The translations under genes were made by a program, and so were the position numbers. A stretch of 64,000 bases of DNA from an uncultured Actinomycetes bacterium (lineage in GTDB: Bacteria; Actinomycetota; UBA4738; HRBIN12). The notes beneath the pieces are model-generated. The model searched no databases and was not told the origin of the DNA. It was given only the letters and a program-made list of their open reading frames with translations. The stretch's first letter is position 1, and every line of letters starts with the position of its first letter. Of this stretch, positions 14,865 to 54,924 are shown piece after piece. The stretch is taken from positions 18,652-82,651 of the forward strand of contig CAVVVF010000001.1 in assembly GCA_963751665.1 (NCBI GenBank), given 5' to 3'.

Positions 14865-15047
14865 CGAGGTTGAAGTCCCGGCTGTCCCGCCGGAAACCCA
14901 GTGTTCCACGGGTCACTCGGATACCTGCGGCGATGCGCGAATCTGGTCGCGACCTGCGCATCTAGTTGATCGGCCCTTCGCATCGCTGGGCGTGGAGGAG
15001 GTTGTCGGCGAGACGCAGGTCCTTGGGGCCCGGGCTATGGTTGGTCG

Positions 15048-18000
15048 ATGGTCTGCCCCGAGTGCGCGACGCCGAACCCGGATGGAGCTCGGTTCTGTCT
15101 GAACTGCGGGGTTCCTCTCGAGCGGTCCTCGTCGACCGGGCGTGCGACGCGACTCGAGTCCTACCTCCCGAGCGGGATGCTTGCCAAGCTCGAGGCGGCG
15201 CGGGCGGGTCGATCGATGCAGGGCGAGCGCCGGATCGTGACGATGCTCTTCTGCGACGTTGTGGGCTCGACGGCGATGGCCGAGCGGCTCGATCCCGAGG
15301 AGTGGACCGAGATCATGAACGGGGCATTCGAGAACCTCATCGCCCCGGTCTATCGCTACGAGGGCACGTTGGCCCGGCTGATGGGCGATGCGATCTTCGC
15401 GTTCTTCGGCGCGCCGATCGCCCATGAGGACGACCCGCAGCGGGCGGTCGCCGCCGGCCTGGAGATCGTCGAGGGGATCCGCGCCTACCGCGAGAGGATG
15501 AAGGGCGATCGCGATCTGGACTTGAACGTCCGCGTGGGCATCAACACGGGCCCCGTCGTGGTCGGCGAGGTCGGCTCGGATCTTCGACTCGAGTACACGG
15601 CCATGGGCGACGCGGTGAACGTCGCGGCTCGAATGGAGCAGACGGCCGAGCCCGGCACGGTGCAGATCACGGCAGAGACGCACCGCCTCGTCGCTCCGCT
15701 CTTCGACGTCGAGTCCCGAGGCGCCGTCCAGGTCAAGGGGAAGGCCGAGCCGGTTGCGGCCTATCGGGTCGTCCGAAGGAAGAAGCAGCCTGGACCCACG
15801 CGCGGGTTCCGTGCCGGCGGGGCGCCGCTGGTGGGGCGGGGGCGCGAGATGGCACTGCTCCAGCGTGCCGTCGACGAGGTGATCGACGGACGAGGCCAGA
15901 TCGTCTCGCTGATCGGAGAGGCCGGTCTGGGGAAGAGCCGGTTGATCGAGGAGACCCGTGAGGTCTGGGCGACACGTCGGGCAGAGGGGGACTACGAGGT
16001 CGGGGACATCCGACGGATCTGGGAAGTCTGGCAGTGCGTGTCCTACGACACGACACGCCCCTACGCGCAATACCGGCGCATGCTGGCCAAGATCGCTGGG
16101 ATCGACGACACCGACCCACCGGACGTCGTCCGGGAGAAGCTGGCACGGACCATCGATTTTTCTGCGGATTGGGTGGAACCCCACATGCGGGTCTGGCGCT
16201 CGCTCTTCGGTATTCCGGAGCCCGGAGAAGTACCACTGGAAGGCGAGGCATTCAGGCGCGCGATCACGGAGCTGGTCGTTTCATCCACCCGCCACGTCGG
16301 CTCCGAACCCCGGCTACTGGTGTTCGAGGACTTGCACTGGTGCGACGAAGCTTCCATGGACCTGTTGATCGAGACGGCCAAGGTCGTCGATGACCTACCG
16401 AGCCTGTTCCTGTTCGCCTTCCGTCCCGACCGGCAGGCGCCGTCCTGGCGTCTGAAACAGTGGCTCGAGGTCGAGTATCCGCACCGCTCCACGGAGATCG
16501 TGCTCACTCCTCTCTCGGATCAGGAGAGCAGCGATTTGATCGACGAACTGCTGCCGGAAGAGGGCAGATCAGACACCATCCGAACCCAGATCCTCGAAAG
16601 GACGGAGGGCAACCCGCTGTTCGTGGAGGAAGTGGCTGCCGCCGTCCTCGAGCAGGGATCCACGGATGAGGGCATCGCGGTTCCGACCACCCTGCAGGCG
16701 CTGATTACCGCGCGCCTCGACACGCTCGACGACGAGGCCAGACGTACGCTGCAGCTCGCCTCGGTCATAGGGCGCTCGTTCCTCGAACCCGTCCTTGCCG
16801 CCGTCGCAGGCGACGGCACCGACCTCCGAGCGCGACTGAGCACGCTGGAGCGGGTGAGTCTCATCAGCGAGACCGCCCGGATGCCCGAGCGCGAGTACGC
16901 GTTCCACCACAGCCTGACCCAGGAGGCCACGTACGGCACGATCCTGCGGCGAGAGCGGCGCAAGCTCCATCTGCGGGTCGGAGAAGCCTTGGAGCGGCTG
17001 TACGTGAACCGGATCGAGGATTTCGCGCCCCTGCTCGCTCGCCACTTCCAGGAGGCCGGCGACGACGACCGCACGCTCCGCTACGCCACCGTCGCGGGCG
17101 ATCACGCGGCCAAGCTCTACGCCAATGCCGATGCGGTGACCCACTACACGAATGCGATCGACGCCGCTCGGCGGCTCGAGCGTTCGGAGGAGCAGCTCCG
17201 GCTGTTCCCGAGCCGCGGCAGGGCGTTCGAGCTCGCGGCGCGCTACGACGACGCGGTTGCCAACGACGAGTCGTGGCGCGCGCTCGCGGAGGAGGGGGGC
17301 GATCGGTCAGCCGTGCTCGGCGCCGAAATGGCGCTCGCCACCCTGTTCTCGACGCCGACCCCGAAGTTCGATGCCGAGCGCGGTCGAGCGCTCTCGGAAC
17401 GCACGCTGGACCTGGCGCGCGAGCTCGGCGATCGCGTGGCCGAGTCCAAGGCTCTGTGGAACTTGATGATCCTGAACGTGTACGGCGGCGGGGACCTCCG
17501 CGAGGCCGTGGACGCGGGAGAGCGGTCGCTGGCCATCGCGCGTGAGCTGGATGCGCGGGAGCAGATGGCCTTCACGCTGAACGACCTGTGGCGTCCGAAC
17601 GTCGCGATCGGTGGGTTGGGAGCATCACGCGCGAGCCTGGAGGAGGCGCGGACGCTCTGGCGCGAGCTCGGCAACCTCCCGATGCTGAGTGAGAACCTTG
17701 CCAGCTCTGCCTCGGTTGCCCGCCTCGTCGGGAACGACCGGGATGCGCTCGCCCTCGCCGAGGAGGCCCACGGGATCGCCAAGGACATCGGCAACCTGTG
17801 GGGCCAGGCGTACAGCCTGATGAACATCTACGGCATCTACCTGGATCGCGGCGAGCTAGGAAGGGCCATGGAAACGATGCGGGAATGCATCGCGATCGCC
17901 GAGCCCGCCGGGTTCATCCCTCCACAGGCGACCACCCGCGCCGACCTCGCGTCCGTCCACGCGTACCTCGGCGATCTCGAGGGGGCCCAGGAGCTCGTGC

Positions 18001-18590
18001 GGGTCGCCCTCGACGTGGCGAGGCAGAAGCAGCCGATCGCGCTCCCGTGGGTTATGGGCGCGAAGTCGGAGCTCCACCTTCTGGCAGGCGAGCTCGACGA
18101 GGCCGAGGCCGCCGTCGGTGGGAGCCAGGTCGAGCTGCTCCCGGAGCCGCTCCAGTCCACAGCGTCCATCCACGTGGCGCTCGTCCGCGGCCGCATCGCC
18201 TTGGCGAGAGGCGACCAGGCCCGAGCCGTCGAGATCGCCGACACGATCCTCGAGCGTTTGCGCCGGCTCGAGGTCCGGCAGTTCGCCGCAGACGTCCTCT
18301 TGCTCAAGGGAAGCTCACTCGCCTCGGCTGGAAAGACCGATGAGGCCGAGCGCGTGCTCGGGGAGGCGCGGGCGGAGGCGGAGAGGCTCGAGTGCCGGCG
18401 AATCTTGTGGGAGGTGCTTTGGGCGCTGAGCGAGATCTTGGACGTACAGGGGAACGCGGAGGACGCCAAAGAGCTCCGGGCCGAAGCTCGGCGCCTCGTT
18501 GAGCGGATAGCGGAAAGTGTCGATGAGGAGGAGCTCCGGTTGGGCTTCCTGGAACGGCCCGACGTGATGGTCGTGCTTACCGACCATTGA
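15048..18590 (+). CDS. class III adenylate/guanylate cyclase with N-terminal zinc ribbon, AAA/STAND NTPase and C-terminal TPR repeats
   Basis: CPECATPNPDGARFCLNCG; cyclase core FCDVVGSTAMAERL...GDAIFAFFGAP...RVGINTGPVVVGEVGS...AMGDAVNVAARME; Walker A GEAGLGKSRL; long TPR-like C-terminus; intact 1180 aa. Confidence 0.8.
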   Translation: MVCPECATPNPDGARFCLNCGVPLERSSSTGRATRLESYLPSGMLAKLEAARAGRSMQGERRIVTMLFCDVVGSTAMAERLDPEEWTEIMNGAFENLIAPVYRYEGTLARLMGDAIFAFFGAPIAHEDDPQRAVAAGLEIVEGIRAYRERMKGDRDLDLNVRVGINTGPVVVGEVGSDLRLEYTAMGDAVNVAARMEQTAEPGTVQITAETHRLVAPLFDVESRGAVQVKGKAEPVAAYRVVRRKKQPGPTRGFRAGGAPLVGRGREMALLQRAVDEVIDGRGQIVSLIGEAGLGKSRLIEETREVWATRRAEGDYEVGDIRRIWEVWQCVSYDTTRPYAQYRRMLAKIAGIDDTDPPDVVREKLARTIDFSADWVEPHMRVWRSLFGIPEPGEVPLEGEAFRRAITELVVSSTRHVGSEPRLLVFEDLHWCDEASMDLLIETAKVVDDLPSLFLFAFRPDRQAPSWRLKQWLEVEYPHRSTEIVLTPLSDQESSDLIDELLPEEGRSDTIRTQILERTEGNPLFVEEVAAAVLEQGSTDEGIAVPTTLQALITARLDTLDDEARRTLQLASVIGRSFLEPVLAAVAGDGTDLRARLSTLERVSLISETARMPEREYAFHHSLTQEATYGTILRRERRKLHLRVGEALERLYVNRIEDFAPLLARHFQEAGDDDRTLRYATVAGDHAAKLYANADAVTHYTNAIDAARRLERSEEQLRLFPSRGRAFELAARYDDAVANDESWRALAEEGGDRSAVLGAEMALATLFSTPTPKFDAERGRALSERTLDLARELGDRVAESKALWNLMILNVYGGGDLREAVDAGERSLAIARELDAREQMAFTLNDLWRPNVAIGGLGASRASLEEARTLWRELGNLPMLSENLASSASVARLVGNDRDALALAEEAHGIAKDIGNLWGQAYSLMNIYGIYLDRGELGRAMETMRECIAIAEPAGFIPPQATTRADLASVHAYLGDLEGAQELVRVALDVARQKQPIALPWVMGAKSELHLLAGELDEAEAAVGGSQVELLPEPLQSTASIHVALVRGRIALARGDQARAVEIADTILERLRRLEVRQFAADVLLLKGSSLASAGKTDEAERVLGEARAEAERLECRRILWEVLWALSEILDVQGNAEDAKELRAEARRLVERIAESVDEEELRLGFLERPDVMVVLTDH

Positions 18591-18670
18591 CATCGGCTGG
18601 TCTCTTTCTCTTCCGCGCAGAGCGCGCGGGACGACTATGTTTGGTCCGACTGACGGGTGGGAGCCGCGGC

Positions 18671-21532
18671 ATGGGGATCGCTTCACGAACGCTGCGCATC
18701 AGGACAGGCGAGGGTCGCATTGCGGCGCTGCTTGTCAGTCTGACGTTCGCGTCTATGGCCGCCCTTACGGTGGGCGAGAGCGGGATCGACGCGTTGTTCT
18801 TCGACCGCGTCGGCACGGACGCGCTTCCGCTCATGTACCTCCTGCAGGGAGGCGCGACGTTCGTTGCGATGCTGGTGCTCACAGGCATCCTCGGTAGGTT
18901 TGGCCCGCGACGGGCGTACGTCTTGGCACCCCTCGCACTTGGCGTGCTCGTGGTGGCCGAGCGCAGCGTGCTCGTCACCGACGTCCGGTGGATCTACCCG
19001 GTCCTGTGGGTAACGGTCGCTCTCGCTTGGCTCATCCAGGGCATCTTCCTGTGGGGAACGGCTGGGGCCGTCGTCGACACTCGGCAGGCCAAGCGCCTGT
19101 TCCCGATCTTCGCTGCCGGGGGAATCCTCGGCTCAGTCGTCGGCGGCTTGATCACGCGGCCCATTGCCTCGACGATCGGAGCGGAGAACCTCCTTCTCGT
19201 CTGGGCGGGTGTGCTCGGCGGCGTATTCGTCTTGTGTCGAGCGGCGCTCGGTCCTGCCTCGGGCGGCGTACGCCGACGGGTCGCGCGGAAGCGCGTGTCG
19301 GCGCTGAAAGACATTGCCCAAGGCCTCGCGTACGTTCGTCGATCGAGGCTGCTCATGTGGATGACGGCCGCAGCGGTCCTTTTCTCCGTCCTCTACTACT
19401 CGCTGTACCTGCCCTACGCGCGGGCCGCGAGTGATCGCTTCCCGGACGCAGACAAGCTCGCCGGCTTCTTCGGGCTGTTCTGGGCGGGCGTGACCGGTGT
19501 CGCGTTCCTGGTCTCCATGCTGCTCACGAACCGCCTGTTCGCATGGTTCGGCTTGGCGGCGATGGTCATCGTGCTCCCGATGCTGTACACGGGGGCGTTC
19601 GGCATCCTCCTCCTGGGATCGGGGTTCCTGACACTGGTCGCGGTACGGTTCGCGATCGGTGTGTGGCTCCAGGGTGTCGCATCGCCGGGTTGGGAGACGC
19701 TCGTCAACGTCGTCCCGGAGACCAGACGCGACCAGACGCGGGCGTTCCTCAACGGCGGGCCGGCGCAGATAGGGACGGCGATCGCAGGCGTCGTGGCGCT
19801 CGTCGGTCAGGACGTCTTGACGCAGCGCCAGCTCGCTGCTATCGGTCTTGTGGCGGCAGCGTTGACGGTCGTCGCGGCGTTCGGCATCCGCCGATCCTAC
19901 GCGGACGCGCTTGCAGACGCCCTCCGCGCCGGCTGGCCGCAGGTGTTTGACCGCGCCTTCGTCCGCGGGATCCCGATCCCGGTCGCCGTCGATGCAGAAG
20001 CGGCACGGGTACTCGCCGACTTGGTGCGATCGCCGGACGTGCGCGTCCGTCGGCTCGCGTTCCAGATGGTCGCTGACCTGCCGCCGGACACACGACCGAT
20101 CGAGTTTGCGGAGGGGCTCGACGACGCCGACCCGATCGTTCGGCTCGCCGCCGTCCGGGCCCTCGACGTTGCGACCATCTCTTGGCGCGATGCGCTGTTG
20201 GCGAGGATCGACGACCCTGACACTGCGGTCGCCGCAGCGGCAGCCGCGCGCGCGATCGGCCTCGTCGCGGACCCAAGACCGGCGGCTCGACTGCGCGAGC
20301 TCCTCGCCGCCGCCGACACCGAGACTCGTCGCGCGGCGCTCGAGCAGCTCGCGCTCGCGCCGCGCGATCAAGCGGCGGCGTTCGCCTCGGAGCTGGTCGC
20401 CGATGCGTCCGGCGACGTCCGTGCCCTGGCGCTCGAGAGACTGGCCGATGCCGCCCCCGCCGAAGCCGTAGAGCCTGCGCTCGCCGGGATGGGGGACCCG
20501 GACCCCGCGGTCCGGATGGCGGCGGGGCGGGCCCTCGGCATGGCGGACGGCCGAGCTCTTGACCACGTCTTGGCAGCACTCGACGATCCACAAACGGCCG
20601 GTGCCGCAATCGAGGCGGTTCGCCGTTTGGAACTCGACGGCAGGGGAGATCGGGTCCGAGAATTCGTCCGTTCGACGGCCGCGCGCGCCATGCGAGATCG
20701 GGAACTGGTCGCCGCGATCCCTCCCGACGGGGAAGAGGTCTCGCTCCTGCGCGATGCGATCCTCGATCGGGGACGACGCGTAGCCCTCTCCGCCCTCTGG
20801 GCGGCGACGATGGTCGCCCACCGGCGCGGCCTGATGGTGGAGGCGATCGAGAACCTTGACAGCAAGTCCGGTCAACTCGCGAACGCGCTCGAGACGCTCG
20901 AGGCCGCGGGGGACCCACTCGTACATCCACTCCTCGGCCTGTGGGAGCCCGCTGGAGCAATGACCCACGGCGCCGGCGAGGACTGGCTGGCCCGGGCCCT
21001 CGCGGACGGTGACGGATTCATCGGTCAATGCGCGGAGCTCGTGCGCGCTCGAAGAGAAGGAGAATCGATGACTGGGTCGACGATGACGCTCTCGGTGATC
21101 GAACGGGTGCTCTTCCTCCGGCAGGTTTCGCTGTTTGTCGATCTCCCTCCGGCCGATCTTGAGCGCGTGGCCTCGATCGCCGATGAGCTCAGCTATTCCG
21201 ACGGGGACGTGATCGCAGCGGAGGGCGAGTTCGGCCAGGAGCTCCACATCGTGGTCGATGGGACATTGCTGGTGACCCAGGACCGCGACGGATCGGAACA
21301 GGAGCTGGCGCGCCGAACCACCGGAGACGTTGTGGGTGAGATGTCCCTCATCACCCAGACGCCGCGGATCGCCTCGCTCGTGGCCGACGGCGATGTACGC
21401 ACGATCCGGATCGGCCATCGAGAGTTCGAGAGCATGCTTCGCGAGCGCCCTGGGGTCGGCCTCGCCGTGATGCGTGTGCTCGCCAATCGCCTCGCAGAGG
21501 TGTCGCCCCGTCCGGAACCGGGCAGGGTATGA
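18671..21532 (+). CDS. TLC (ATP/ADP translocase-like nucleotide transporter family) membrane domain fused to HEAT/PBS-lyase repeats and a C-terminal cyclic-nucleotide-binding domain
   Basis: About 12 TM helices with NTT-like motif QAKRLFPIFAAGGILGSVVGG; repeated DPD/DPDPAVRMAAGRALG HEAT-like units; cNMP fold LFLRQVSLFVDLPPADLERVA...GEMSLIT...RTIRIGHREFESMLRE. Frame is open from a TTG at 18587 overlapping the upstream stop; first ATG at 18671. Confidence 0.7.
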   Translation: MGIASRTLRIRTGEGRIAALLVSLTFASMAALTVGESGIDALFFDRVGTDALPLMYLLQGGATFVAMLVLTGILGRFGPRRAYVLAPLALGVLVVAERSVLVTDVRWIYPVLWVTVALAWLIQGIFLWGTAGAVVDTRQAKRLFPIFAAGGILGSVVGGLITRPIASTIGAENLLLVWAGVLGGVFVLCRAALGPASGGVRRRVARKRVSALKDIAQGLAYVRRSRLLMWMTAAAVLFSVLYYSLYLPYARAASDRFPDADKLAGFFGLFWAGVTGVAFLVSMLLTNRLFAWFGLAAMVIVLPMLYTGAFGILLLGSGFLTLVAVRFAIGVWLQGVASPGWETLVNVVPETRRDQTRAFLNGGPAQIGTAIAGVVALVGQDVLTQRQLAAIGLVAAALTVVAAFGIRRSYADALADALRAGWPQVFDRAFVRGIPIPVAVDAEAARVLADLVRSPDVRVRRLAFQMVADLPPDTRPIEFAEGLDDADPIVRLAAVRALDVATISWRDALLARIDDPDTAVAAAAAARAIGLVADPRPAARLRELLAAADTETRRAALEQLALAPRDQAAAFASELVADASGDVRALALERLADAAPAEAVEPALAGMGDPDPAVRMAAGRALGMADGRALDHVLAALDDPQTAGAAIEAVRRLELDGRGDRVREFVRSTAARAMRDRELVAAIPPDGEEVSLLRDAILDRGRRVALSALWAATMVAHRRGLMVEAIENLDSKSGQLANALETLEAAGDPLVHPLLGLWEPAGAMTHGAGEDWLARALADGDGFIGQCAELVRARREGESMTGSTMTLSVIERVLFLRQVSLFVDLPPADLERVASIADELSYSDGDVIAAEGEFGQELHIVVDGTLLVTQDRDGSEQELARRTTGDVVGEMSLITQTPRIASLVADGDVRTIRIGHREFESMLRERPGVGLAVMRVLANRLAEVSPRPEPGRV

Positions 21533-21617: not shown

Positions 21618-21659
21618 GTAGTCCCAACGGGATTTGAACCCGTGTCTCCACCTTGAGAG
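21618..21659 (-). repeat. direct repeat copy 1 of the 42-bp 3' half of tRNA-Glu (putative distal att site of island 1)
   Basis: gtagtcccaacgggatttgaacccgtgtctccaccttgagag identical to 47606-47647 and to the 3' half of the intact tRNA at 54851-54892. Confidence 0.75.
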
Positions 21660-21754
21660 TGTTCTAGGGGCCACTCTCGCTACCCGGGGCGATTCGCGAA
21701 TCTGCCTCCTGAACTGCGCATTTTGTTGCTCAGCCCTTCTCGTTGTTTCTTCCC

Positions 21755-21788
21755 GTCTCCCGGTCGTTCGCGGGACGAATGCGGGACG
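21755..21788. repeat. arm-type repeat gtctcccggtcgttcgcgggacgaatgcgggacg next to att copy 1 (second copy at 47742-47780)
   Basis: Exact 33-34 bp match between the two island left ends, embedded in about 130 bp of roughly 65% similar flanks; contains internal direct repeat gcgggacgaa. Confidence 0.6.
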
Positions 21789-22248
21789 GGAACGACCTCT
21801 TTCGGCGGAGCCCGGCGAAGCTGCCTTGGGACTCGCCAGATCGGTGGCCGTCAGGTCTTGGTGTCACGGGGGCGAGGGCCGGGTCTGCAGAAAACGCGGA
21901 AGATACCCTCCTGACCAGCAGCATCCAGCACACGAGTGCAGCTAGTGGGTGTCCCGGGCGCCGGATCGGCGTGGCCGGGGACGTTCGACCGTGTTCGGGC
22001 CAGGTTTCGGCCGGCCCTCGTCGTTGCGTGGGGTCAGGCGGCAGTCGCGACGCCTGCGCGCTTGCGGTGACGGTGCCATCTGAGGCTTGAAGTTCGCCCC
22101 GGTTCCGGGAACCGATCTCCAGAACGCGGCCCTCGGCGTGGGCGACCGGTTCCCCGCGGCGCTCACCGAAACCGATCCGCTGCTCGAACCAGACCCCCAC
22201 CGGATGGAAGAAGGCGAAGATGGGATGACTCTCCGTCACGAACGCAGC

Positions 22249-27270: not shown

Positions 27271-28194
27271 CTAGCGCCCGATCGCGGGGGGCCGCGCGGC
27301 CAGCACCGCGCGCCTCGCGGCCGCGCCGGAGGCAAAGCGCAGGAACGCCTGGGCCGGAGCCGGCAAGAACCCGTCCTCCAGGTATTGCAGGAACCATCGT
27401 CGCCGAAGCGGCGTTCCCCGCGCCCGCAGGCGTGCCAGGGTCCCGGCTGCGATCTCCAAGGCCACCGCCTGAGCCGAGATGAGGGTCACGCCGAGCCCGA
27501 CTGCAGCTGCTTGTTTCACGGCTCCATTGCTGCCCAGGTTCAGCACACGCCGGGGCTCGATCTCGTGCCGGGCAAGGAACTCCTCCGTCGTAGAGCGCGT
27601 CCCAGAGCCGGGCTCGCGAAGGAGCCATGTGTCGTTGAGCCGTCGCGGGTCGATGCCCGAGCGACCGGCTAGCGGATGGTCTGGAGCCGACACGATGACC
27701 AGGTCGTTCGCGAGGAACCCCCGGCCGTCGACGGGCCCGTCTGCCGGCGGACGTCCGCCGACGGCCAGGTCCGCCTCCCGGGCCAGCAAGCGCTCCAGAA
27801 CCAAAGCCCGGTTCCCCACCTCCAGCACCGGGTCCACCTCCGGGTACTGTTCCTGAAAGGCCTTGAGGATGGGGGGGACAACGTACTCGCCGGCGGTCGT
27901 GACCGCGGCGAGCCGCAGTCGGCCCCGGCCAGGGTGCGCGGCCGCGACGGCGGAGTCCCTACCCTGTTCCAGCAACGCCAGGCACTGCGCCGCGAAGACG
28001 GCCAGGGCCTCGCCCGAAGGGGTCGGGCGCACGCCCTGCCGGTCCCGGACCACTAATCGGACGCCCACGTCGCGCTCGAGCGCGGCCAGGCTCGCCGAGA
28101 CCGCCGGCTGCGTCACATACAGCTCGGCTGCGGCGCCAGTCACCGAGCGGTGTCGCACCACCGCGAGGAATGCACGCAACTGAGCGAGGGTCAT
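27271..28194 (-). CDS. cbbR: LysR-family transcriptional regulator, divergent from RuBisCO genes (CbbR-like)
   Basis: [43 protein letters not shown]; position divergent to cbbL is the canonical CbbR arrangement. Confidence 0.7.
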
Positions 28195-28285
28195 AAAGAA
28201 AGCTTATATGGGAACACGAAAGATTCAATTGTATCTGATCTCGCAAGGCCCTAGGGTGGAATGTGATCCAGAAGGGGAGGAACCG
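28195..28285. promoter_or_regulatory. cbbR-cbbL divergent intergenic control region (locally AT-rich, putative LysR T-N11-A boxes, RBS GAAGGGGAGGA)
   Basis: aaagaaagcttatatgggaacacgaaagattcaattgtatctgatctcgcaa is markedly AT-rich for this genome and lies between divergent regulator and operon. Confidence 0.3.
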
Positions 28286-29728
28286 ATGGCCCTCACCAAC
28301 CACACGAAGTTGTTCGACGCGGGAGTGAAGCTCTACAAGGACATGGGCTACTTCGAGCCCGGCTACGCGCCGAAGGAGACTGACGTCCTCGCGGCGTTCC
28401 GTGTCACGCCTCAGGAGGACGTCCCCCCCGAGGAGGCCGCTGCGGCCGTCGCCGCCGAGTCCTCGACCGGCACCTGGACCTCGGTCTGGACCGACCGCCT
28501 CACCGACCTGGAGCGCTACCGGGGCCGGTGCTACCGGATCGACCCGGTCCCGGGCGAGCCGAGCCAGTACATCGCCTACGTCGCCTATGACCTCGACCTG
28601 TTCGAGGAGGGTTCGATCGCGAACATGGCCTCATCGATCGTCGGGAACGTGTTCGGGTTCAAGGCCCTCCGGGCCCTCCGCCTGGAGGACCTTCGGGTAC
28701 CGATCGCCTACCTGAAGACGTTCCAGGGACCGCCCCACGGGATCCGGGTGGAGCGCGACAAACTGAATAAGTACGGCCGGCCCCTGCTTGGCTGCACGAT
28801 CAAGCCGAAGCTCGGGCTCTCCGCTCGCACCTATGGGCTCGCGGTATACGAATGCCTGCGCGGAGGTCTCGACTTCACGAAGGACGACGAGAACATCAAC
28901 TCCCAGCCGTTCATGCGCTGGCGGGACCGGTACGAGTTCGTCATGGAGGCGGTTCGCAAAGCCGAGGACGAGACCGGGGAGCGCAAGGGCCACTACCTGA
29001 ACGTCACCGCCCCAGGATTCGAAGAGATGATCGAGAGGGCCGAGCTCGCGAAGGAGCTCGGCGCGCCGATCATCATGGTCGATTACCTCACCGTCGGGTT
29101 CACCGCGTTCACGTCGCTGTCGCGGTGGTGCCGACGGAACGGGGTGCTGCTGCATTGCCACCGTGCCATGCATGCGGTAATCGACCGCCAGCGCAACCAC
29201 GGCATCCACTGGCGGGTGCTCGCGAAGTGGTGCAGGATGATCGGGGCAGATCACCTGCACAACGGGACCGTCGTCGGGAAGCTCGAGGGCGACCGGGCCG
29301 CGACGATGGCCATCAACGACCTCTTGCGGGAAGACTTCGTCGCGCGGGATCGGTCGCGCGGGATCTACTTCGACCAGCCCTGGGCGTCGTTGCCGGGCCT
29401 GTTCCCGGTGGCTTCGGGCGGGATCCACGTCGGTCACATGCCGGACCTCGTTGCCATCTTCGGCGACGACGCAGTGTTCCAGTTCGGGGGTGGGACGCTT
29501 GGCCACCCTTGGGGCAGCGCAGCCGGAGCCACCGCGAATCGGGTCGCGCTCGAGGCCGTGATCCAGGCCCGAAACGAAGGCCGGGAGATCGCTGCGGAGG
29601 GCGCGGACGTCCTACGGAAGGCGGCGGCGCACTCTCCCGAGCTGCGCGCGGCCCTCGAGACGTGGCAGGATGTCACCTTCGAGTTCGATGCGGTCGACGC
29701 CCTCGACCAAGCACAGGTGACGTCGTGA
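28286..29728 (+). CDS. cbbL: ribulose-1,5-bisphosphate carboxylase/oxygenase large subunit, form I
   Basis: Signature [42 protein letters not shown], followed by small subunit gene. Confidence 0.9.
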
Positions 29729-30042
29729 CGACGAGCACTCGCCGCCTGGAAACCTTCTCCTACCTGCCGCCTCTCACCGACGAGCAGATCACCGCGCAGA
29801 CCGGCTCGATCCTGGAGCGCGGGTTGATCCCCGCGATCGAGCACACGACCGACCCTGGACCGCGAAACACCTACTGGAGCCTGTGGAAGCTCCCGCTGTT
29901 CGACGCGCGAACGCCGGAGGCGGTTCTGGCCGAGGTCGAGGCCTGCGCGCGAGCCAACCCCGACGCATACGTCCGGCTGAGTGGCTACGACCCGAAGCGC
30001 CAGGGGCAGGTCGCGAGCTTCCTGCTCCGCCGCCCCAGTTGA
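29725..30042 (+). CDS. cbbS: RuBisCO small subunit
   Basis: [14 protein letters not shown]...[11 protein letters not shown]; GTG start overlaps cbbL stop. Confidence 0.85.
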
Positions 30043-30353
30043 GAGCCCACAGGGCGTTCTAGGTTCGGAACGCTGGATCGCTGGCGAGTCCGGGCCCAGG
30101 CTTTCCCCATCGTGCTCCCGCAGCTCGCTGGGAACCTTCCCTCCCTGGGGGGAGGCCGGTCTCCCCCTCCCTCCCCCCACTCCGGGTGATAACGGGCGCG
30201 GGGACCTCGCCTACGGTAATGATCGAGCAGCGGCTATGGATCTCCCTCGGGGAGGCTCGGGCTTCCGAACGAACCACCCGACACCCACGCGACGACGTGT
30301 GGGGACGATCCATGGCGACAGCATGCGGGACAGAGAGAAGAGGTGAGGCGGCC

Positions 30354-31268
30354 GTGAGACCGGTCATGCTGGCGATCGTCGGAGACAGCGCCGCCGGCAA
30401 GACGACCTTCACTCAAGGGGTCGTGGGGCTGCTCGGGGAGGGGCGCGTCGCCGTGATGTGTACCGACGACTATCACCGCTACGATCGTGTCCAGCGCCGC
30501 GAGCTGAACATCACACCCCTCGACCCTGACGGCAACTACATGGACATCATGGCCCAGCATCTTCGGTTGCTCGCCGCCGGGGAGCCGATCTTGAAGCCCG
30601 TCTACGACCACAGCCATGGCAACTTCGCGCCTCCCGAGTACGTGGTCGCCCGGCAGTTCATGGTCGTTGAAGGCCTTCTCGGCCTGACGACCAAGCCCAT
30701 GCGTGACTGCTACGCGGTGAGGGTCTACCTCGATCCGCCCGAGGACATGCGGCATCGGTGGAAGATCCAGCGCGACTGCGCGAAGCGCGGCTACACCCCA
30801 GATCAGGTGCTCGAGGAGCTGGAAAGGCGCGAGCCGGACTCGGCCGTCTTCATCCGGCCCCAGCGCGGGAGCGCGGACATCGTCGTGCGCTTCGAGCCTC
30901 CGAACGGCTTCGTCGACAGCGCGCGCCTGTCGATGCGCATGGTGTTGCGCCCGACGATCTCTCATCGAGATCTCACCGAACTCGCCGAGAAGGCCGTTTC
31001 GGACGGATGCGAGTCGATCCGGCTGGAGCTCGGGCGCGACGAGGGACACCCGGCCGACCTCCTCTACGTATCCGCGGACATCTCCGCCGAGGAGACCGCG
31101 CACCTGGAATCGCTGCTCTGGGAGCGCATGGATTTCGATCATCATCTCGAGCGCGAGGATATCGGCACCTTCGTCGAGGGCAACCGCCGCCGCCACTCGG
31201 ACTGCCTCGCTATCGCGCAGCTGTTCATCACCTACCACCTCCTGAACGCCGCGGCAGGCGGGCAGTGA
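30354..31268 (+). CDS. prk: phosphoribulokinase
   Basis: P-loop IVGDSAAGKTT and PRK-specific DDYHRYDR motif. Confidence 0.8.
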   Translation: MRPVMLAIVGDSAAGKTTFTQGVVGLLGEGRVAVMCTDDYHRYDRVQRRELNITPLDPDGNYMDIMAQHLRLLAAGEPILKPVYDHSHGNFAPPEYVVARQFMVVEGLLGLTTKPMRDCYAVRVYLDPPEDMRHRWKIQRDCAKRGYTPDQVLEELERREPDSAVFIRPQRGSADIVVRFEPPNGFVDSARLSMRMVLRPTISHRDLTELAEKAVSDGCESIRLELGRDEGHPADLLYVSADISAEETAHLESLLWERMDFDHHLEREDIGTFVEGNRRRHSDCLAIAQLFITYHLLNAAAGGQ

Positions 31269-31293
31269 TGGCCCGGGTGCGGGTGGCTGCTCG

Positions 31294-32688
31294 GTGACGA
31301 CCCCGGCCGGGTCGATCCTCCTCGCCGGCGGGGCGATGTCGAGCCTCGACGACTACATCGCCGCGGGCGGAGGGAGGGCGCTCGTCGCGGCGCTCGAACG
31401 CTCGCCGCAGGCGGTGATCGATGAGGTGAAACGCTCGGGCCTTCGGGGCCGCGGGGGAGGGGGGTTCGCTACAGGCGTGAAGTGGGAGTCCGTCCGGTCC
31501 GACCCATGCCCCACCAAGTTCGTGATCTGCAACGCGGCCGAAGGGGAGCCCGGCACGTTCAAGGACCGCTGGCTCCTGCGGCACAACCCCTACCAGGTGC
31601 TGGAAGGCATCGCCATCGCCACCCGCGCGGTGGGGGCCGACCGCGCGTTCATCGCGGTCAAGCGCGCGTTCGAGCGGGAGATCCGCACGCTTCGTCGAGC
31701 CATCGCCGAGATGAGAGGGAGCGACATGCTCGGCCCCGTTCCCATCGAGATCATCCTTGGGCCCGACGAGTACCTCTTCGGAGAAGAGAAGGCGCTCCTC
31801 GAGGTGATCGAGGGGAACGACCCCCTCCCGCGGATCCTCCCTCCCTACCAGGTTGGGCTGTTCGCCAGACGGGGATCTAGCAACCCCACAGCCGTCAACA
31901 ACGTCGAGACCCTTGCCAACGTGCCTCACATCATCACCAAGGGCTCGGAGTGGTTCCGGTCGTTCGGAACCGAGACCTCGCCTGGGACCGGGGTGTTCAC
32001 CCTGTGCGGGGACGTGCGCCGGCCCGGCATCTATGAGCTCCCCCTCGGCCTGCCCCTACGGACCCTCCTGTACGACATCGGCGGAGGCTCGCCCGAGGGC
32101 AGAGCGCTAAAGGCCGTCTTCCCCGGTGCATCCAACGCAGTCCTCTCGGCCGAGCAGTTCGACACCCCGATGGACTTCGACTCGATGAGGGCGGTGGGGT
32201 CCGGGCTGGGATCGGCGGGATTCGTGGCGTACGACGAGTCGGCGTGCATCGTGAGGGCCACCCTCGCGTACTCTCGGTTCCTCTACGTCGAGTCGTGCGC
32301 GCAGTGCCCGGCCTGCAAGCAGGGCTCCGAGGAGATCACCGACTGCCTGGAGAGGATGGAGCGAGGCGAGGGCTCGGAGTCAGACGTAGAGTCCGCACTC
32401 GCCAGGTGCCTCGCGGTGACGGGTGGCCGGCGGTGCGCCCTTCCCACGGGTGAGTCGCTTCTCGTCCAGAGCGCCATCCACGCGTTCGAGGTCGAGTTCC
32501 GGGAGCACCTCGGCCGGCCCTGCCCCAGGCCGCGCGACCTTCCTCTCCCCAAGCTCGTGGACTTCGACGAGGAGGGCGGGCGGTTCGTTTACGACGACCG
32601 GTATCGGCTGAAGCGGCCGGACTGGACGTTCGAATCCGGGCGGAAAGGTGCTCGGTCGATGCCGGCGCGAGAGGAAGCACCAGCGTGA
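31294..32688 (+). CDS. NuoF-like NAD(H)-binding FMN/Fe-S flavoprotein (Complex I 51 kDa family), stand-alone
   Basis: GLRGRGGGGFATGVKW FMN/NADH motif, C-terminal 4Fe-4S cysteine cluster ESCAQCPACKQG. Confidence 0.75.
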   Translation: MTTPAGSILLAGGAMSSLDDYIAAGGGRALVAALERSPQAVIDEVKRSGLRGRGGGGFATGVKWESVRSDPCPTKFVICNAAEGEPGTFKDRWLLRHNPYQVLEGIAIATRAVGADRAFIAVKRAFEREIRTLRRAIAEMRGSDMLGPVPIEIILGPDEYLFGEEKALLEVIEGNDPLPRILPPYQVGLFARRGSSNPTAVNNVETLANVPHIITKGSEWFRSFGTETSPGTGVFTLCGDVRRPGIYELPLGLPLRTLLYDIGGGSPEGRALKAVFPGASNAVLSAEQFDTPMDFDSMRAVGSGLGSAGFVAYDESACIVRATLAYSRFLYVESCAQCPACKQGSEEITDCLERMERGEGSESDVESALARCLAVTGGRRCALPTGESLLVQSAIHAFEVEFREHLGRPCPRPRDLPLPKLVDFDEEGGRFVYDDRYRLKRPDWTFESGRKGARSMPAREEAPA

Positions 32689-33356
32689 AGGTGGGAGACC
32701 TCGCCACAGCCCCGGTCGTTTCCGTCCGCCCGGAGCAGTCCGTGCGCCAAGCCGCGCGAGTGATGATGGAACACGGAACCGGCTCGACGGTCGTCCTCGA
32801 TGGGGGAGCGCTGGTCGGGATCCTGACCGAGCGAGATCTCCTGCGGGCCGCTGCGACGGGAACGGATCTGGACGGGACGAGGGTCGAGCAGTTCATGTCC
32901 CCGCACGTGAAGACGATCGGTCCCGACTGGGAGGTCTACGAGGCAACGGCGGAGATGGCGGCCCAGCACATCCGCCACCTGGTCGTATGTGAGAACGCGC
33001 AGGTGGTCGGCGTCTTGTCGGTACGGGACGTGCTCCTGGCGGGCCAGCGAGTGGAGCTCACGGCCGGGAGCTGGGCCGTGCTGCGGGACCCGTTGACCTT
33101 GACCATCAGGGAACGCCGACGCCTCCAGCGGTGCCTACTCATGCTCCGCGGGACCGACCCCGCCGAGTTCGAGCTCGCGGGCTTGATCGGCCTCCTGGTG
33201 GGGAGCTGGTCGTTTGAGGTGGCCCTTCCGGCAGAGTCCGAGAGCCTACGGTCGATACCCGCCGCAGACTATGAGTTGCTCAGGGCGGCGGTGTTGGCCG
33301 AGCTCCCCGACCTTCAGCGCTCCGTGCACCCCTCACCCGGGTGGCGGCGGAGGTAA
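32685..33356 (+). CDS. CBS domain pair protein
   Basis: Two CBS-like units (…VVLDGGALVGILTERDLL… / …HLVVCENAQVVGVLSVRDVL…); overlaps upstream stop. Confidence 0.65.
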   Translation: MKVGDLATAPVVSVRPEQSVRQAARVMMEHGTGSTVVLDGGALVGILTERDLLRAAATGTDLDGTRVEQFMSPHVKTIGPDWEVYEATAEMAAQHIRHLVVCENAQVVGVLSVRDVLLAGQRVELTAGSWAVLRDPLTLTIRERRRLQRCLLMLRGTDPAEFELAGLIGLLVGSWSFEVALPAESESLRSIPAADYELLRAAVLAELPDLQRSVHPSPGWRRR

Positions 33357-33394
33357 GAGACAGCGTGAAAGATCGACGAGCCCTGGAAGTGCAC

Positions 33395-34105
33395 GTGAGA
33401 GAGCCCGCGATCGTCGCGTCGGTCCTTGGCGCCGATTACGCCAACCTGGGGCGGGAGGTGGCGGAGCTCGAGGCCGCCGGGGTCGACCGCATCCAGTGGG
33501 ACGTGATGGACGGGCGCTTCGTCCCGAACCTGACGTTCGGTTCCGACGTCGTGGCCGCTTGCCGCCGCCTCTCGGAGCTTCCGTTCGAGGCCCACCTCAT
33601 GGTTGAGGAGCCCGATCGATGGCTCGAACCCTTCGCCGCCGCCGGCTGTGACACGTTGATCGTCCACCAGGAGGCGTGCCGGCACCTGCACCGGACGCTC
33701 ACGCAGATTCGGGCGCTAGACGTGCTCGCGGGCGTCGCGCTCAACCCGGCGACCCCGATCGAGTGCGTGCGTCACGTGCTCGACCAGGTCGACGTCTTGC
33801 TCGTTATGACCGTCAACCCCGGCTTCGGAGGGCAGTCGTACATCGCGGCGATGGAGGAAAAGGTGGCCGAGGCCCGGCACCTGATCGACCGGTCGCGGTT
33901 CGCTACGACGATCGAGGTCGACGGGGGGATCTCCGCTGCGACCGTTGCGGGGGCGTGGAAGGCCGGGGCGGAGCTCCTCGTAGCCGGATCGGCCATCCTC
34001 GGCCATGCCGAGGGGAAGCAGGCCGCGGTGGCCGAGCTCCGGCGATGCCTGGAGCTCTCACAGAGACCGGTCCCAACCCGCGGACCGTTGGAGTCCCAAC
34101 GATGA
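33395..34105 (+). CDS. rpe: ribulose-phosphate 3-epimerase
   Basis: [35 protein letters not shown] motifs; start codon choice (GTG 33389/33395) uncertain. Confidence 0.8.
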
Positions 34106-36163: not shown

Positions 36164-36165
36164 GG

Positions 36166-37440: not shown

Positions 37441-37500
37441 ACGTCATCCGCGATCGGCGACGCCGACCGAAACCTGACGCCAGAAAGAGGGAGGAAGGCG

Positions 37501-45367: not shown

Positions 45368-45589
45368 AAGCGACATCGATCAAGGACTTCCTTCTTCCGT
45401 GTGTGCAGTGCTGCTCGGGCACGGGGGGCTGGCGTCGACAGGACGAGGCGTGCCACCGAATCGAACGAGAGTCGGGCGCCGCCGAAGGCAACAGGGAAGA
45501 TCCATCTCAGCCAGGCGGCGGGCGCGCAGGGGTGGATCGGCGCGGCCAGCTCGTTTGCTAGATGCCGAGGGTGGCGAACCGAAGACCAA

Positions 45590-46046
45590 GCGCTCCCGCC
45601 GCTGGGTGACCGTGCCGGAATTCGTCTCCGCTTCTTTGGCCGAGCACGTCCGGAAGTACCCGCCGGGTCCCGACGGACTCGTGTTCACCGCACCGAAGGG
45701 AGGGCCGATCCGGCGCCCCGCCTTCTACAGGCTCGTCTGGTCCAAGGCAACACGAGCGGCTGGCCTCGAAGGCTTCCCGTTTCGCAACCTGCGGCACACG
45801 GGAGCAACATTGGCGCTTCAGGAGGGCACGAGTCCCGTCCTGGTGGCCTTTCGTTTAGGACATGCATCGACAGCCATGATCGAGCGACACTACGGCGAAC
45901 TCGTTGAGGGCTTCGACCGGGAGATCGCCGATCGCCTCGCGGAAGCCCGGAGAAGAGAGCGCCGAAGTCCTGACCTTGCCCCTGTGTCGTCCCTGGCCGC
46001 CGCCCGGCGGTCTCGCAGGAGGAATCCTCGCAAGAGGACTCGCTGA
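45590..46046 (+). pseudogene. C-terminal catalytic-domain fragment of a tyrosine recombinase/phage-type integrase
   Basis: LRHTGATLALQEG ... LGHASTAMIERHYGEL (H-x-x-R, second H, catalytic Y) without N-terminal SAM-like/core-binding domains. Confidence 0.55.
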
Positions 46047-47130: not shown

Positions 47131-47605
47131 CGACGGCCTCCTCGCTGGTCGGGGGCATCGAAGATACGCCGATGAGGCCCCCGAGGTTCCGCCCCGCGTG
47201 CGCGAGCTCCACGCCCAGCGCGGCGACCGAGTCCTTCCCCGCGATGAGTTTGCCGGGTTCCGGCAGTCTGGATCGGGCAGAGGAGTGGCACCGGCATGGC
47301 TCGTGCCCGGACACCCCAGCACCTTGTCGACGGAGGGCACGCCCTCGGCCGGCAGACCTTGCTCGCGGCCGACGGAGACCTCCGTCGGGCGGTGTCGTAG
47401 TCGGACTCGAGCTGGGGGCGGCCCTGTGATCCGGATCTGCGCGGCGCAAGGGTGGCGAGTGCATCCACCCTCGACACCCGCACTACTTTCGCGCACTCGC
47501 TACGCTTGATCCGGCGCGGGATATTTGCGGGATATCCGGCGTTTGATCTTGGTTCAACCAGCCGATCGATTCAGGACTAGCGCCCTGACCTGGCGCTTTG
47601 CTCTA

Positions 47606-47647
47606 GTAGTCCCAACGGGATTTGAACCCGTGTCTCCACCTTGAGAG
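47606..47647 (-). repeat. direct repeat copy 2 of the 42-bp tRNA-Glu 3' half (att site between island 1 and island 2)
   Basis: Identical 42-mer; following about 6 bp (tgttct) also identical to copy 1 but not to the tRNA. Confidence 0.75.
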
Positions 47648-47741
47648 TGTTCTCGGGGGACGATTCCGCTACCTGCGGCGATGCCCGAATCCAGTACCTG
47701 ACCCGCGGATTCGATGCTCCAGCCGTTCCCGTCATTTCTTG

Positions 47742-47780
47742 ACGTCTCCCGGTCGTTCGCGGGACGAATGCGGGACGAAC
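47742..47780. repeat. second copy of arm-type repeat (see 21755-21788)
   Basis: cgtctcccggtcgttcgcgggacgaatgcgggacgaacg. Confidence 0.6.
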
Positions 47781-47870
47781 GCGAGATTGGCCAGTGTTGG
47801 ATCGACGGCTCCGGGGGTCCTATCGACCGATCGAGAGCGTTGCACCGTAGCCACATCGATCCTGTTTGGG

Positions 47871-53595: not shown

Positions 53596-53720
53596 GCTCT
53601 CTCGAGCATCGGGTGAGTCCCTTGAGAACGGCTTGAAAGAGGCGTCCAGCCGTTCTCAGGGCTCCTCCGCCAACCTCGAGCGTGGTCCTCATAGGAGCGA
53701 CCAGAGGAAGGGAGGAAGGT

Positions 53721-54482: not shown

Positions 54483-54848
54483 CAGGCCAACGAAGGAGTG
54501 CGCCGAGAAAGCCCGGTCCCGCCCTGAGGGACCGGGCTTCTCGGCCTGAACCGATCTCGACGCAGCACTCCCGCGCCGTCACCCGGCGGCATTGGATCGC
54601 GTTCGAACTCGCGGTCCAGACCGCAGGGTCTATCGGTGGCGCATGCGCCTCAGGTGTCTTACCGGATTGCGAGGTCCAGGGGTGATCTGCCCGTGACGCC
54701 TCGCGGTCGGCTGCGGGGACAGATGCGGGACGAGAAGAGGGGCGGCCCAGCCTGTTCAGCGCGCTTGATCGGCGCTTCGGTGCGACTGAAAGGCCGTGTC
54801 TGCACCTTGACCAGGGTGGAGACGGGAACTCCGACGATGCGTTTCCCC

Positions 54849-54924
54849 TGGTAGTCCCAACGGGATTTGAACCCGTGTCTCCACCTTGAGAGGGTGGTGT
54901 CCTCGGCCACTAGACGATGGGACC
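54849..54924 (-). tRNA. tRNA-Glu, anticodon CUC, 3' CCA encoded
   Basis: Reverse complement GGTCCCATCGTCTAGTGGCCGAGGACACCACCCTCTCAAGGTGGAGACACGGGTTCAAATCCCGTTGGGACTACCA folds as cloverleaf (7-bp acceptor with G1-U72, 5-bp anticodon stem CCACC/GGTGG, loop CUCUCAA, T-arm ACGGG-TTCAAAT-CCCGT); same length and architecture as canonical bacterial tRNA-Glu. Confidence 0.8.

Follow-up and report, generated by a model that had tools for sequence, protein, structure and literature searches.

In the attachment site attP of phage lambda, the arm-type sites P1, P2 and P'1-P'3 are the counterpart of a heterobivalent integrase, Int. Closer to the organisms considered here, pairs of 11-bp repeats that flank the core of mycobacteriophage attachment sites have been predicted as arm-type sites, and related integrases acting on the same attB were found to use different arm motifs (PMC3203893). 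In Actinobacteria, the AICEs pSAM2, SLP1 and pMEA300 integrate into the 3' part of tRNA genes by means of tyrosine integrases, with int adjoining attP (PMC2440964). Finally, a definition of CIMEs and a three-step model of their accretion have been described (PMC5704250). A locus with three copies of a tRNA-Glu fragment is contained in a 64-kb stretch of DNA, here referred to as the window. Its features are:

14898..15030 (approximate), + strand: decayed third copy of the P' arm, 63% identical to the consensus
21618..21659, + strand: distal att core, a 42-bp tRNA-Glu 3' fragment at the left end of the 25.9-kb island
21660..21790, + strand: distal (P'-type) arm of the 25.9-kb island, 83% identical to the family consensus
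21755..21788, + strand: exact 34-nt block, copy 1, with tandem 11-bp repeats GCGGGACGAAT + GCGGGACGGGA starting at 21770, about 111 nt from the core
45573..46046, + strand: C-terminal remnant of a tyrosine integrase, covering only positions 67-165 of 172 of PF00589 (tblastn; alignment to full-length relatives)
47516..47537, + strand: tandem pair GCGGGATATTT GCGGGATATCC of the family B motif class, situated about 70 nt to the left of the middle core in the tRNA-proximal arm of the 25.9-kb island
47606..47647, + strand: middle att core, a 42-bp tRNA-Glu 3' fragment at the junction of the 25.9-kb and 7.2-kb islands
47648..47779, + strand: distal (P'-type) arm of the 7.2-kb island, 94% identical to the family consensus
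47744..47790, + strand: exact 34-nt block, copy 2 (47744-47777), with repeats GCGGGACGAAT + GCGGGACGAAC and then a degenerate third unit GCGAGATTGG
54692..54850, + strand: tRNA-proximal (P-type) arm of the 7.2-kb island, 73% identical to the P-type consensus
54849..54924, - strand: intact tRNA-Glu (anticodon CTC), the integration target (ARAGORN; Rfam tRNA, 65.4 bits; pattern match)
54851-54892: 42-bp identity segment within the intact tRNA, from the anticodon loop to the 3' end

The tRNA-Glu(CTC) is the only tRNA gene of the window. Its 42-bp 3' segment is present in three identical copies, one of them inside the intact gene, and the cores stop at the 5' edge of the anticodon loop; the core common to attP and attB is the 3' segment of the tRNA from the anticodon loop onwards. 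In the two distal copies the identity extends over 47 nt and includes the junction AGTGTTCT. Zero matches were obtained in 100 shuffles. The 25.9-kb island (21660-47606) and the 7.2-kb island (47648-54851) are arranged in tandem to the left of the tRNA gene, which remains intact at the right end. This pattern is the classic mark of tyrosine-integrase elements that insert at the anticodon loop and supply a replacement 3' half. The region 47648-54851 is bounded by cores and arms at both ends, equivalent to the attL and attR flanks of a CIME, and the region 21660-47606 contains a core at each end, with arm motifs that differ. A search for a lost att site inside the 25.9-kb island, allowing for up to 10 mismatches, found none, and no relatives with the same chromosomal flanks, suitable for a presence/absence comparison, were present among the fetched loci.

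Both islands carry cargo. The larger one encodes a multicopper oxidase, a GAF histidine kinase with a LuxR-type regulator and a complete RuBisCO/Calvin-cycle cluster, together with a transposase-like HTH ORF, a GH114 hydrolase, a bactofilin, a methyltransferase, a GDSL lipase, the integrase remnant and PD40-repeat genes. The smaller one consists chiefly of a single large cyclase/BTAD/kinase/STAND/WD40 gene that is split over several reading frames, and of a lipoprotein-like ORF. Pfam scans of the islands did not reveal any transfer genes. An earlier note on this DNA had described a C-terminal fragment as its lone recombinase and had stated that the second island has none, and both statements hold: besides the remnant at 45573-46046, no other tyrosine recombinase was found in the window, and the 7.2-kb island is devoid of an integrase in the Pfam scan. 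The remnant, whose open reading frame begins past the catalytic arginine of box I, contains neither this residue nor the N-terminal arm-binding and core-binding domains, and it cannot be active because these two domains are missing. Functional genes for integration and transfer, which are lacking in CIMEs, are thus equally lacking here; the 25.9-kb island has a truncated integrase and the 7.2-kb island none. The remnant is located 1.56 kb from an att copy, and the arm that adjoins it contains the motif GCGGGATAT, which differs from the GCGGGACGAA block; for both reasons it is probably not the partner of the latter. Full-length relatives of the remnant share 54-67% identity with it. The impression that its family would be known as fragments only, which had come from 85 of 85 matches to a 121-aa query being at most 207 aa long, was an artefact of the word search and was discarded.

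On the island side of the two distal cores, the flanks at 21667-21788 and 47656-47777 can be aligned without gaps at 75% identity, and the segment between the end of the core and the block, which comprises about 95 nt in each copy and 98 columns in a gapped alignment, shows 71% identity when gaps are introduced. Both flanks lead into the 34-nt block GTCTCCCGGTCGTTCGCGGGACGAATGCGGGACG, which is found in exact form at 21755-21788 and 47744-47777, with a chance expectation of none. In simulations, a run of at least 34 matches on a background of 71% identity occurs with P ~3e-4. Past the block, the two copies are unrelated (49% in a forced global alignment). Of the similarity of about 65% that the earlier note had assigned to 21660-21800 and 47648-47790, the homology stands while the value has to be raised to the measured 71-75%; the block is shared exactly, as claimed, at a length of 34 nt instead of 33; and the direct repeat that was thought to be present twice in the block is so in the 47.7-kb copy only (with GCGGGACGAA at 47759 and 47770), whereas the 21.7-kb copy contains GCGGGACGAA followed by GCGGGACGGG. 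The repeat 10-mer alone is not over-represented in the window, with 15 one-mismatch matches compared to 13 expected. The tandem pair GCGGGA-N5-GCGGGA is found three times in exact form within the 64 kb, where 0.08 would be expected, always on the + strand and no more than 160 bp away from an att core.

The third of these exact pairs resides at 47516-47537. A homologous arm is found at the locus L001, and the same motif class is present on the P' arms of L001 and L079. At the proximal end of the 7.2-kb island, the arm at 54692-54850 contains a degenerate pair GCGGGGACAGAT GCGGGACGAG at 54713-54734, which is located 117 nt to the left of the intact tRNA; a core-like inverted repeat follows at 54794-54824. 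A decayed arm at approximately 14898-15030, directly preceded by a nearly erased tRNA fragment (around 14866-14897), marks an older island spanning 14.9-21.6 kb. The exact pair at 47516, the degenerate pair and the decayed arm were all absent from the initial description of the locus.

The distribution of the arm was surveyed with the 25-mer TCGTTCGCGGGACRAATGCGGGACG as family probe. At least 120 soil metagenome contigs contain this probe, as do 25 stretches from about 23 MAGs that are nearly all labelled Actinomycetota or Actinomycetes. Each genome has one to two copies, and a complete chromosome of 3.13 Mb has a single one. Among the matches listed, the end of a tRNA-Glu core is located 102-107 nt upstream, mostly at 104 nt, in 72 of the 115 instances with enough upstream sequence, and the junction between tRNA-Glu fragment and arm identifies 109 of 153 instances as P'-type arms. 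The alignment of 88 unique arms from the matches listed defines the consensus AGTGTTCTCGGGGCCGATTTCGCTACCTGCGGCGATGCCCGAATCTGGCTCCTGACCTGCGGATTCGATGCTCCAGCCGTTCCCGTCATTTCTTGACGTCTCCCGGTCGTTCGCGGGACGAATGCGGGACGAA, with a column conservation of 80-99% throughout the arm and of 30-50% right past GGGACGA, where at least eight unrelated classes of cargo start. Since conservation collapses directly past the block, the repeats constitute the outer edge of a conserved recombination site. As the metagenome arms were picked by the exact block, its own conservation in this sample is circular, and unbiased information is provided by the flanking columns and the window pair only. Three perfect repeat units are present in the arms of L034 and L036. 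In summary, the two similar flanks of the window are the conserved outer arm of the attachment site in a widespread island family at tRNA-Glu in uncultured soil Actinomycetota. In viral contigs, a search for arms by means of the junction sequence gave no matches. The repeat motif itself matched nine times in such contigs, a number that fits chance, and these matches were set aside as evidence, although some are suggestive, with the motif of L165 located in the 3' end of int and those of L166 and L164 accompanied by repeat clusters.

The same module recurs on the tRNA-proximal arm, where the block is located 117-121 nt ahead of the tRNA 3' end and where CGTGACGTTTCCCGT-TCGTTCGCGGGACAAATGCGGGACGAG is followed by about 85 nt, a core-like inverted repeat, about 28 nt and the tRNA 3' end. 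This arm adjoins an intact tRNA-Glu in L018, L057, L063, L136 and the window (54692-54850), and a core with a P' arm in L071, L107, L128 and others, in which the order is block, 119 nt, core, 104 nt, block. A shorter variant (L117, L042) has the pair at a distance of about 60 nt to the tRNA. Both arm types were present in three complete islands, namely 47648-54851 of the window and islands of 7.8 kb in L018 and 9.8 kb in L063. All three contain cargo alone and no integrase, and an integrase is likewise absent in most complete islands of the GCGGGAC-armed family seen elsewhere. Repeats resembling arm-type sites, and distinct from the core, are thus found on both sides within about 150 bp, as 11-bp pairs or triplets that lie at about +107 to +111 relative to the core on one side and at -60 to -140 on the other; family A and L152 each have one motif on both arms.

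Arms that are not homologous to family A also occur at tRNA-Glu cores, and at least five classes of them possess their own 11-bp tandem pairs at +95 to +110. These include:

ATGCGGGAT / ATACGGGAT: family B pair of L001 and L079, the class of the window pair at 47516
CCTTGGCCC / TCTTGGCCC: pair of L088 and L102
TGCTTGGCC / TTCTTGGCC: pair of L005
GGACCATCGAC twice: pair of L151

A further example is provided by L152, a complete element of 11.5 kb that encodes, besides a Prim-Pol/AAA_25 protein and an HTH_17 protein, an intact integrase of 369 aa with 64% identity to the window remnant. In this element, a GCTGCTGG pair is present on both arms in the same orientation, with TGCTGCTGGTT CGCTGCTGGCC at +108 on the distal side and TTGCTGCTGGT TTGCTGCTGGC at -94 on the proximal side. 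The preservation of position and period, combined with a sequence that changes by element, is what would be expected for protein-binding arm sites that co-evolve with their integrase, and it agrees with the description of mycobacteriophages (PMC3203893).

Repeats of the GCGGGAC type are also found in the 3' coding ends of intact integrases, with two to three tandem units each in L156, L157 and L158. In L156 (P0176, 418 aa), the gene ends 17 nt ahead of an intact tRNA-Glu and its 3' end contains CGCGGGACCAA TGCGGGACCAG; in L157 (P0206, 416 aa), GCGGGACAGAT GCGGGACAGAG ACGGGACGGGG are located in the 3' end ahead of tRNA-Glu; and in L158 (P0122), the 3' end with GCGGGACGGAT GCGGGACGGCG adjoins a putative tRNA-Gly(GCC), which was read from the sequence by eye. 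A sister motif, TGCGGCACG, is found twice in L155 and L002. Because the block reads AG(R/Q)MRD in the tails of these integrases, the proximal arm sites are embedded in the end of the integrase gene itself, and the proximal arm of family A may be what was left after the rest of such a gene was lost. We infer from these similarities that the likely partner of the block is an integrase of the L156/L157 type, with GCGGGAC repeats in its own 3' end and adjoining tRNA-Glu. A GCGGGAC-type integrase and a family-A distal arm at opposite ends of a single element were not encountered in any contig, with L156 and L157 being too short. In the AlphaFold model of P0206 (mean pLDDT 86), the N-terminus folds into a three-strand sheet with a helix, and the Foldseek alignment of this model covers nearly all of lambda Int (1z1b, 341 columns; also 1z1g and 5j0n), so the predicted fold is consistent with a heterobivalent enzyme. 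An N-terminal arm-binding domain, absent from the window remnant, is predicted for related intact integrases at the level of the fold. The N-terminal Pfam family PF26003 is listed for P0182 in precomputed annotation, and our own hmmscan gave no match to it. Two candidates were rejected in the course of this analysis. The intact integrase of L004/L148, located directly left of a core with a family-A arm, had appeared as potential partner of the block, but it has a motif of its own, G(G/C)ACCATCGAC, of which one copy is found past its stop codon and a pair at +98 in the distal arm of the related L151; since this motif differs, the arrangement is a tandem junction and the integrase belongs to the neighbouring element. 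A coding explanation of the arms was also dismissed, in view of 1-nt indels between copies and no common reading frame across them, the block alone echoing the integrase tail peptide.

On the basis of these observations, we consider it likely that 21660-21790 and 47648-47779 are the P' arms of two successive islands at tRNA-Glu(CTC) and that their repeats are arm-type sites of an integrase, a reading that sequence comparison supports well, through their fixed position, the 11-bp period, their presence on both arms, the sharp outer boundary and the shift of the motif between integrase lineages. The same features favour the view of the earlier note, which had taken these sequences for arm-type integrase sites of two related elements. 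The reconstructed attP would comprise about 330 bp, with a TGACGT-N-(GCGGGACRAAT)x2 module on the left, followed by a spacer of about 60-120 nt, the 42-bp tRNA identity segment, a spacer of about 104 nt and a TTGACGT-N-(GCGGGACGAAT)x2-3 module on the right. We infer binding of a protein from the observed repeats, their placement, conservation and distribution: the tandem 11-bp units, which are spaced by one helical turn and point in the same direction on the two arms, would offer docking sites for the N-terminal domain of a heterobivalent tyrosine integrase, which would bridge arm and core sites to assemble a recombination complex as in lambda and mycobacteriophage L5. The islands are non-autonomous, resembling cis-mobilizable elements that have accreted in tandem. 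With a matching integrase and an excisionase provided in trans, excision or transfer could still take place, for each island alone or for both together.

Xis proteins such as those of lambda and L5 typically bind tandem direct repeats at helical spacing, and intact relatives encode HTH_17 proteins beside int. The repeats might in this case bind an excisionase or recombination directionality factor of the HTH_17 Xis-like type, or another accessory protein, instead of the N-terminal domain of the integrase. Sites of Xis are normally found on one arm only, between the core and the arm-type sites, whereas the repeats described here occupy the outer edges of the conserved region on either arm, and their motif follows the integrase lineage and sits inside the 3' end of int. 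We thus regard such an assignment as unlikely.

The embedding of the repeats in integrase genes raises the question of whether the block could be a passive relic, such as the 3' coding end of an integrase (peptide AGRMRD), that was kept by recent descent or gene conversion and has no function. Consistent with such an origin, the block reads ...FAGRMRDE..., matching the tails AGQMRD, AGRMRD and AGPMRD of P0206, P0122 and P0176. A functionless sequence is however difficult to reconcile with an exact run of 34 nt within arms of 71% identity (P ~3e-4, as simulated above), with the cliff in conservation past the block and the high conservation of the flanking TTTCTTGACGTCTCCCGG, on which the sample was not selected, with the 11-bp pair that is kept at the same offset in non-homologous arm classes and with a unit count of two or three in which each unit is kept (L034, L036). 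Together, these properties render a relic quite improbable.

The conserved TTGACG hexamer upstream of the repeats and a possible 8-bp hairpin GGTCGTTC...GAACGACC, which was read from the sequence of copy 1, would be compatible with a regulatory or RNA element at the island edge, such as a promoter or operator of the cargo, a terminator or a small RNA. The hairpin is absent in copy 2 and the downstream cargo varies in gene and strand. Neither a sigma-70-like promoter nor an intrinsic terminator was found in either arm, the only Rfam family detected is tRNA, and RNAalifold on 59 diverse arms did not predict a conserved structure on either strand (-9.6 and -4.0). We therefore consider a role of this kind very unlikely.

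It is hardly credible that the block would be a dispersed REP/MITE-like repeat that came to lie near att by chance, a genome-wide repeat being what the earlier note had named as speaking against its interpretation: although about 30% of the block instances show no recognisable tRNA fragment upstream, 11 of the 44 junction-less instances are proximal arms with a tRNA-Glu core 117-121 nt downstream and many others are truncated visibly or by the end of the contig, and instead of many copies at unrelated loci there are one to two per MAG, most of them about 104 nt from a tRNA-Glu fragment, one in the complete chromosome and two full copies in the 64 kb of the window, both at att junctions.

With the repeats understood as probable integrase arm-type sites, the locus also carries information on its own history. 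The identity of the arms to the consensus drops away from the tRNA, from 94% at 47648 to 83% at 21660 and 63% at 14898-15030. This gradient in age fits a stepwise insertion at the intact tRNA by which older islands were pushed outward, in line with the accretion model described for CIMEs without an integrase (PMC5704250). The 25.9-kb island may be a composite, with a distal arm of family A (GCGGGACGAA) and a proximal arm of family B (GCGGGATAT), which a single integrase could not operate on. Although the islands have lost their autonomy, their previously proposed status as fixed or immobilised does not follow, since the three cores are identical, the distal arms are 94% and 83% identical to the consensus and the repeats are intact except for one degenerate proximal pair. 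Integrases with GCGGGAC tails exist in related organisms, and with arms close to the consensus the islands may be open to mobilization in trans.

That most of these islands have near-perfect arms although they are non-autonomous points to routine mobilization in trans rather than decay. Carrying this thought further, we tentatively raise the possibility, which we regard as speculative, of a routine cassette-like exchange, in which multi-kb cargo without an integrase, framed by a strongly conserved att site of about 330 bp, would be captured, stacked and redistributed at tRNA-Glu by integrases acting in trans from small primase/helicase elements of satellite-like character. The cargo of GCGGGAC-armed islands includes metal-efflux and catabolic genes, signalling ATPases and the whole Calvin-cycle operon of the window. 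If such exchange were to take place, the tRNA-Glu locus of soil Actinomycetota would act like an integron for large cassettes, by way of which autotrophy could spread. For an abundant and hitherto undescribed family of tRNA-Glu islands, the full architecture of the attachment site and a probable arm-site motif could be defined from sequence alone, and the 25-mer TCGTTCGCGGGACRAATGCGGGACG offers a practical metagenome probe for island boundaries and their cargo, such as the RuBisCO/Calvin-cycle cluster of the 25.9-kb island. For specialists the surprise is modest, since the mechanism corresponds to the textbook design of heterobivalent integrases.

Compared to described systems, there is a resemblance to the attP of the mycobacteriophages L5, Giles and the Cluster K phages CrimD and Pixie, which share hosts within the Actinobacteria, an attB that overlaps a tRNA gene and 11-bp pairs, or a pair and a triplet, around the core, often in direct orientation (PMC3203893). 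The family described here differs in its target, tRNA-Glu(CTC), in the motif GCGGGAC(G/A)AA of its predicted sites, in proximal sites that often lie inside the 3' coding end of the integrase and in its carriers, most of which are cargo islands without integrase instead of phages. With lambda, it has in common candidate arm sites on either side of the core, at distances of tens to about 150 bp, the contiguous tandem arrangement of the P' sites at approximately helical spacing and, as judged from the model of P0206, an integrase with an N-terminal domain of three strands plus a helix. There is no sequence relationship to lambda, whose attB is not a tRNA and whose attP includes sites for host bending factors and Xis, whereas the site described here is known as core and repeats alone. 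CIMEs, including those related to ICESt1/ICESt3 of Streptococcus thermophilus and the pathogenicity islands of Streptomyces, similarly keep attL and attR, lack genes for integration and transfer and are found in tandem at one att site. In contrast to these, no co-resident intact element was seen in the window, mobilization is putative and the integrase-bearing relatives resemble small primase/helicase elements instead of conjugative ICEs. AICEs share the tyrosine integrase, the 3' part of a tRNA as target and the position of int next to attP; AICE-type genes for conjugation (FtsK/Tra-like) or Rep were not seen in the window islands or in the relatives examined. The system thus combines a known architecture, consisting of an attP of the lambda/L5 type and a CIME-like tandem accretion of islands without integrase, in a new and abundant family.

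The att-bounded 25.9-kb island (window 21660-47606) carries a complete Calvin-cycle cluster at 27271-38523, with the constituents listed below. Because this complete cluster resides on an island flanked by att sites, the arrangement suggests site-specific integration as the route by which the autotrophy genes were acquired or moved.

Features of the two islands to the left of tRNA-Glu (window positions)
28208-29728, RuBisCO large subunit, Calvin-cycle cluster
29740-30042, RuBisCO small subunit, Calvin-cycle cluster
within 27271-38523, LysR/CbbR-like regulator
within 27271-38523, phosphoribulokinase
within 27271-38523, Nuo51-like protein
within 27271-38523, CBS protein
within 27271-38523, ribulose-phosphate epimerase
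within 27271-38523, transketolase, then CbbX-like AAA ATPase
within 27271-38523, class I FBP aldolase
38878-39783, minus strand, ORF with transposase-type HTH matches, inside the 25.9-kb island
47732-53595, minus strand, very large signalling gene
47671-47680 and 47700-47712, example copies of the ACCTGCGG repeat, P' arm

The only transposase-type matches of the ORF at 38878-39783 (HTH_32, HTH_21 and HTH_Tnp_Tc3_2) are weak, each scoring under its Pfam threshold, and the ORF lacks a catalytic domain; it may be a transposase remnant. The single signalling gene, combining adenylate/guanylate cyclase, Trans_reg_C, BTAD, protein kinase, nSTAND1 and WD40 domains, is distributed over at least three reading frames; it is either a pseudogene or broken by frameshift errors of the assembly.

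A third arm copy, which has decayed to 63% identity to the family consensus, adjoins a nearly erased tRNA fragment, both together spanning 14866-15030 directly after an ABC permease gene. This juxtaposition implies an older island, whose genes at 15048-21532 are one of cyclase-AAA_16-TPR type and one of HEAT/cNMP-binding type. Among the arm copies of the window, those farther from the tRNA are more decayed.

Both arm types contain further repeats. The consensus of the P' (distal) arm holds a second internal direct repeat, ACCTGCGG, with copies about 34 nt apart, and several truncated arms (loci L075, L098, L115 and L146) break exactly at CCTGCGG; the repeat may serve as a binding site of another protein or as a hotspot of recombination. 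The tRNA-proximal (P-type) arm contains at 54794-54824 a core-like inverted repeat, GTCTGCACC-N8-GGTGGAGAC, which resembles the anticodon stem-loop region of the tRNA and recurs in the P-type arms of L018, L057, L063, L071, L107, L128 and L136. Among these contigs the stems are kept while the 8-nt spacer differs, and the repeat could be an additional core-type site or a tRNA relic.

The motif GCGGGACRRATGCGGGAC is also found in a few viral contigs of IMG/VR: two instances (L164 and L166) lie inside GCGGGAC repeat clusters, and one (L165) sits at the 3' terminus of a distantly related integrase gene. The motif may be used more widely, but a total of nine viral matches is compatible with chance.

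Elements carrying intact integrases of the clade (L148-L152, L155-L158) measure about 8-12 kb and encode an excisionase-like HTH_17 protein, HTH_3 regulators and a primase/helicase (Prim-Pol/AAA_25, D5_N/DUF5906 or DUF3631), with L150 additionally containing small and large terminase subunits. Close relatives in L149 and L150 (assigned by ARAGORN) and in L158 (read from the sequence by eye) target tRNA-Gly(GCC) instead of tRNA-Glu. The integrase-bearing elements look more like satellites or small prophages than like conjugative elements.
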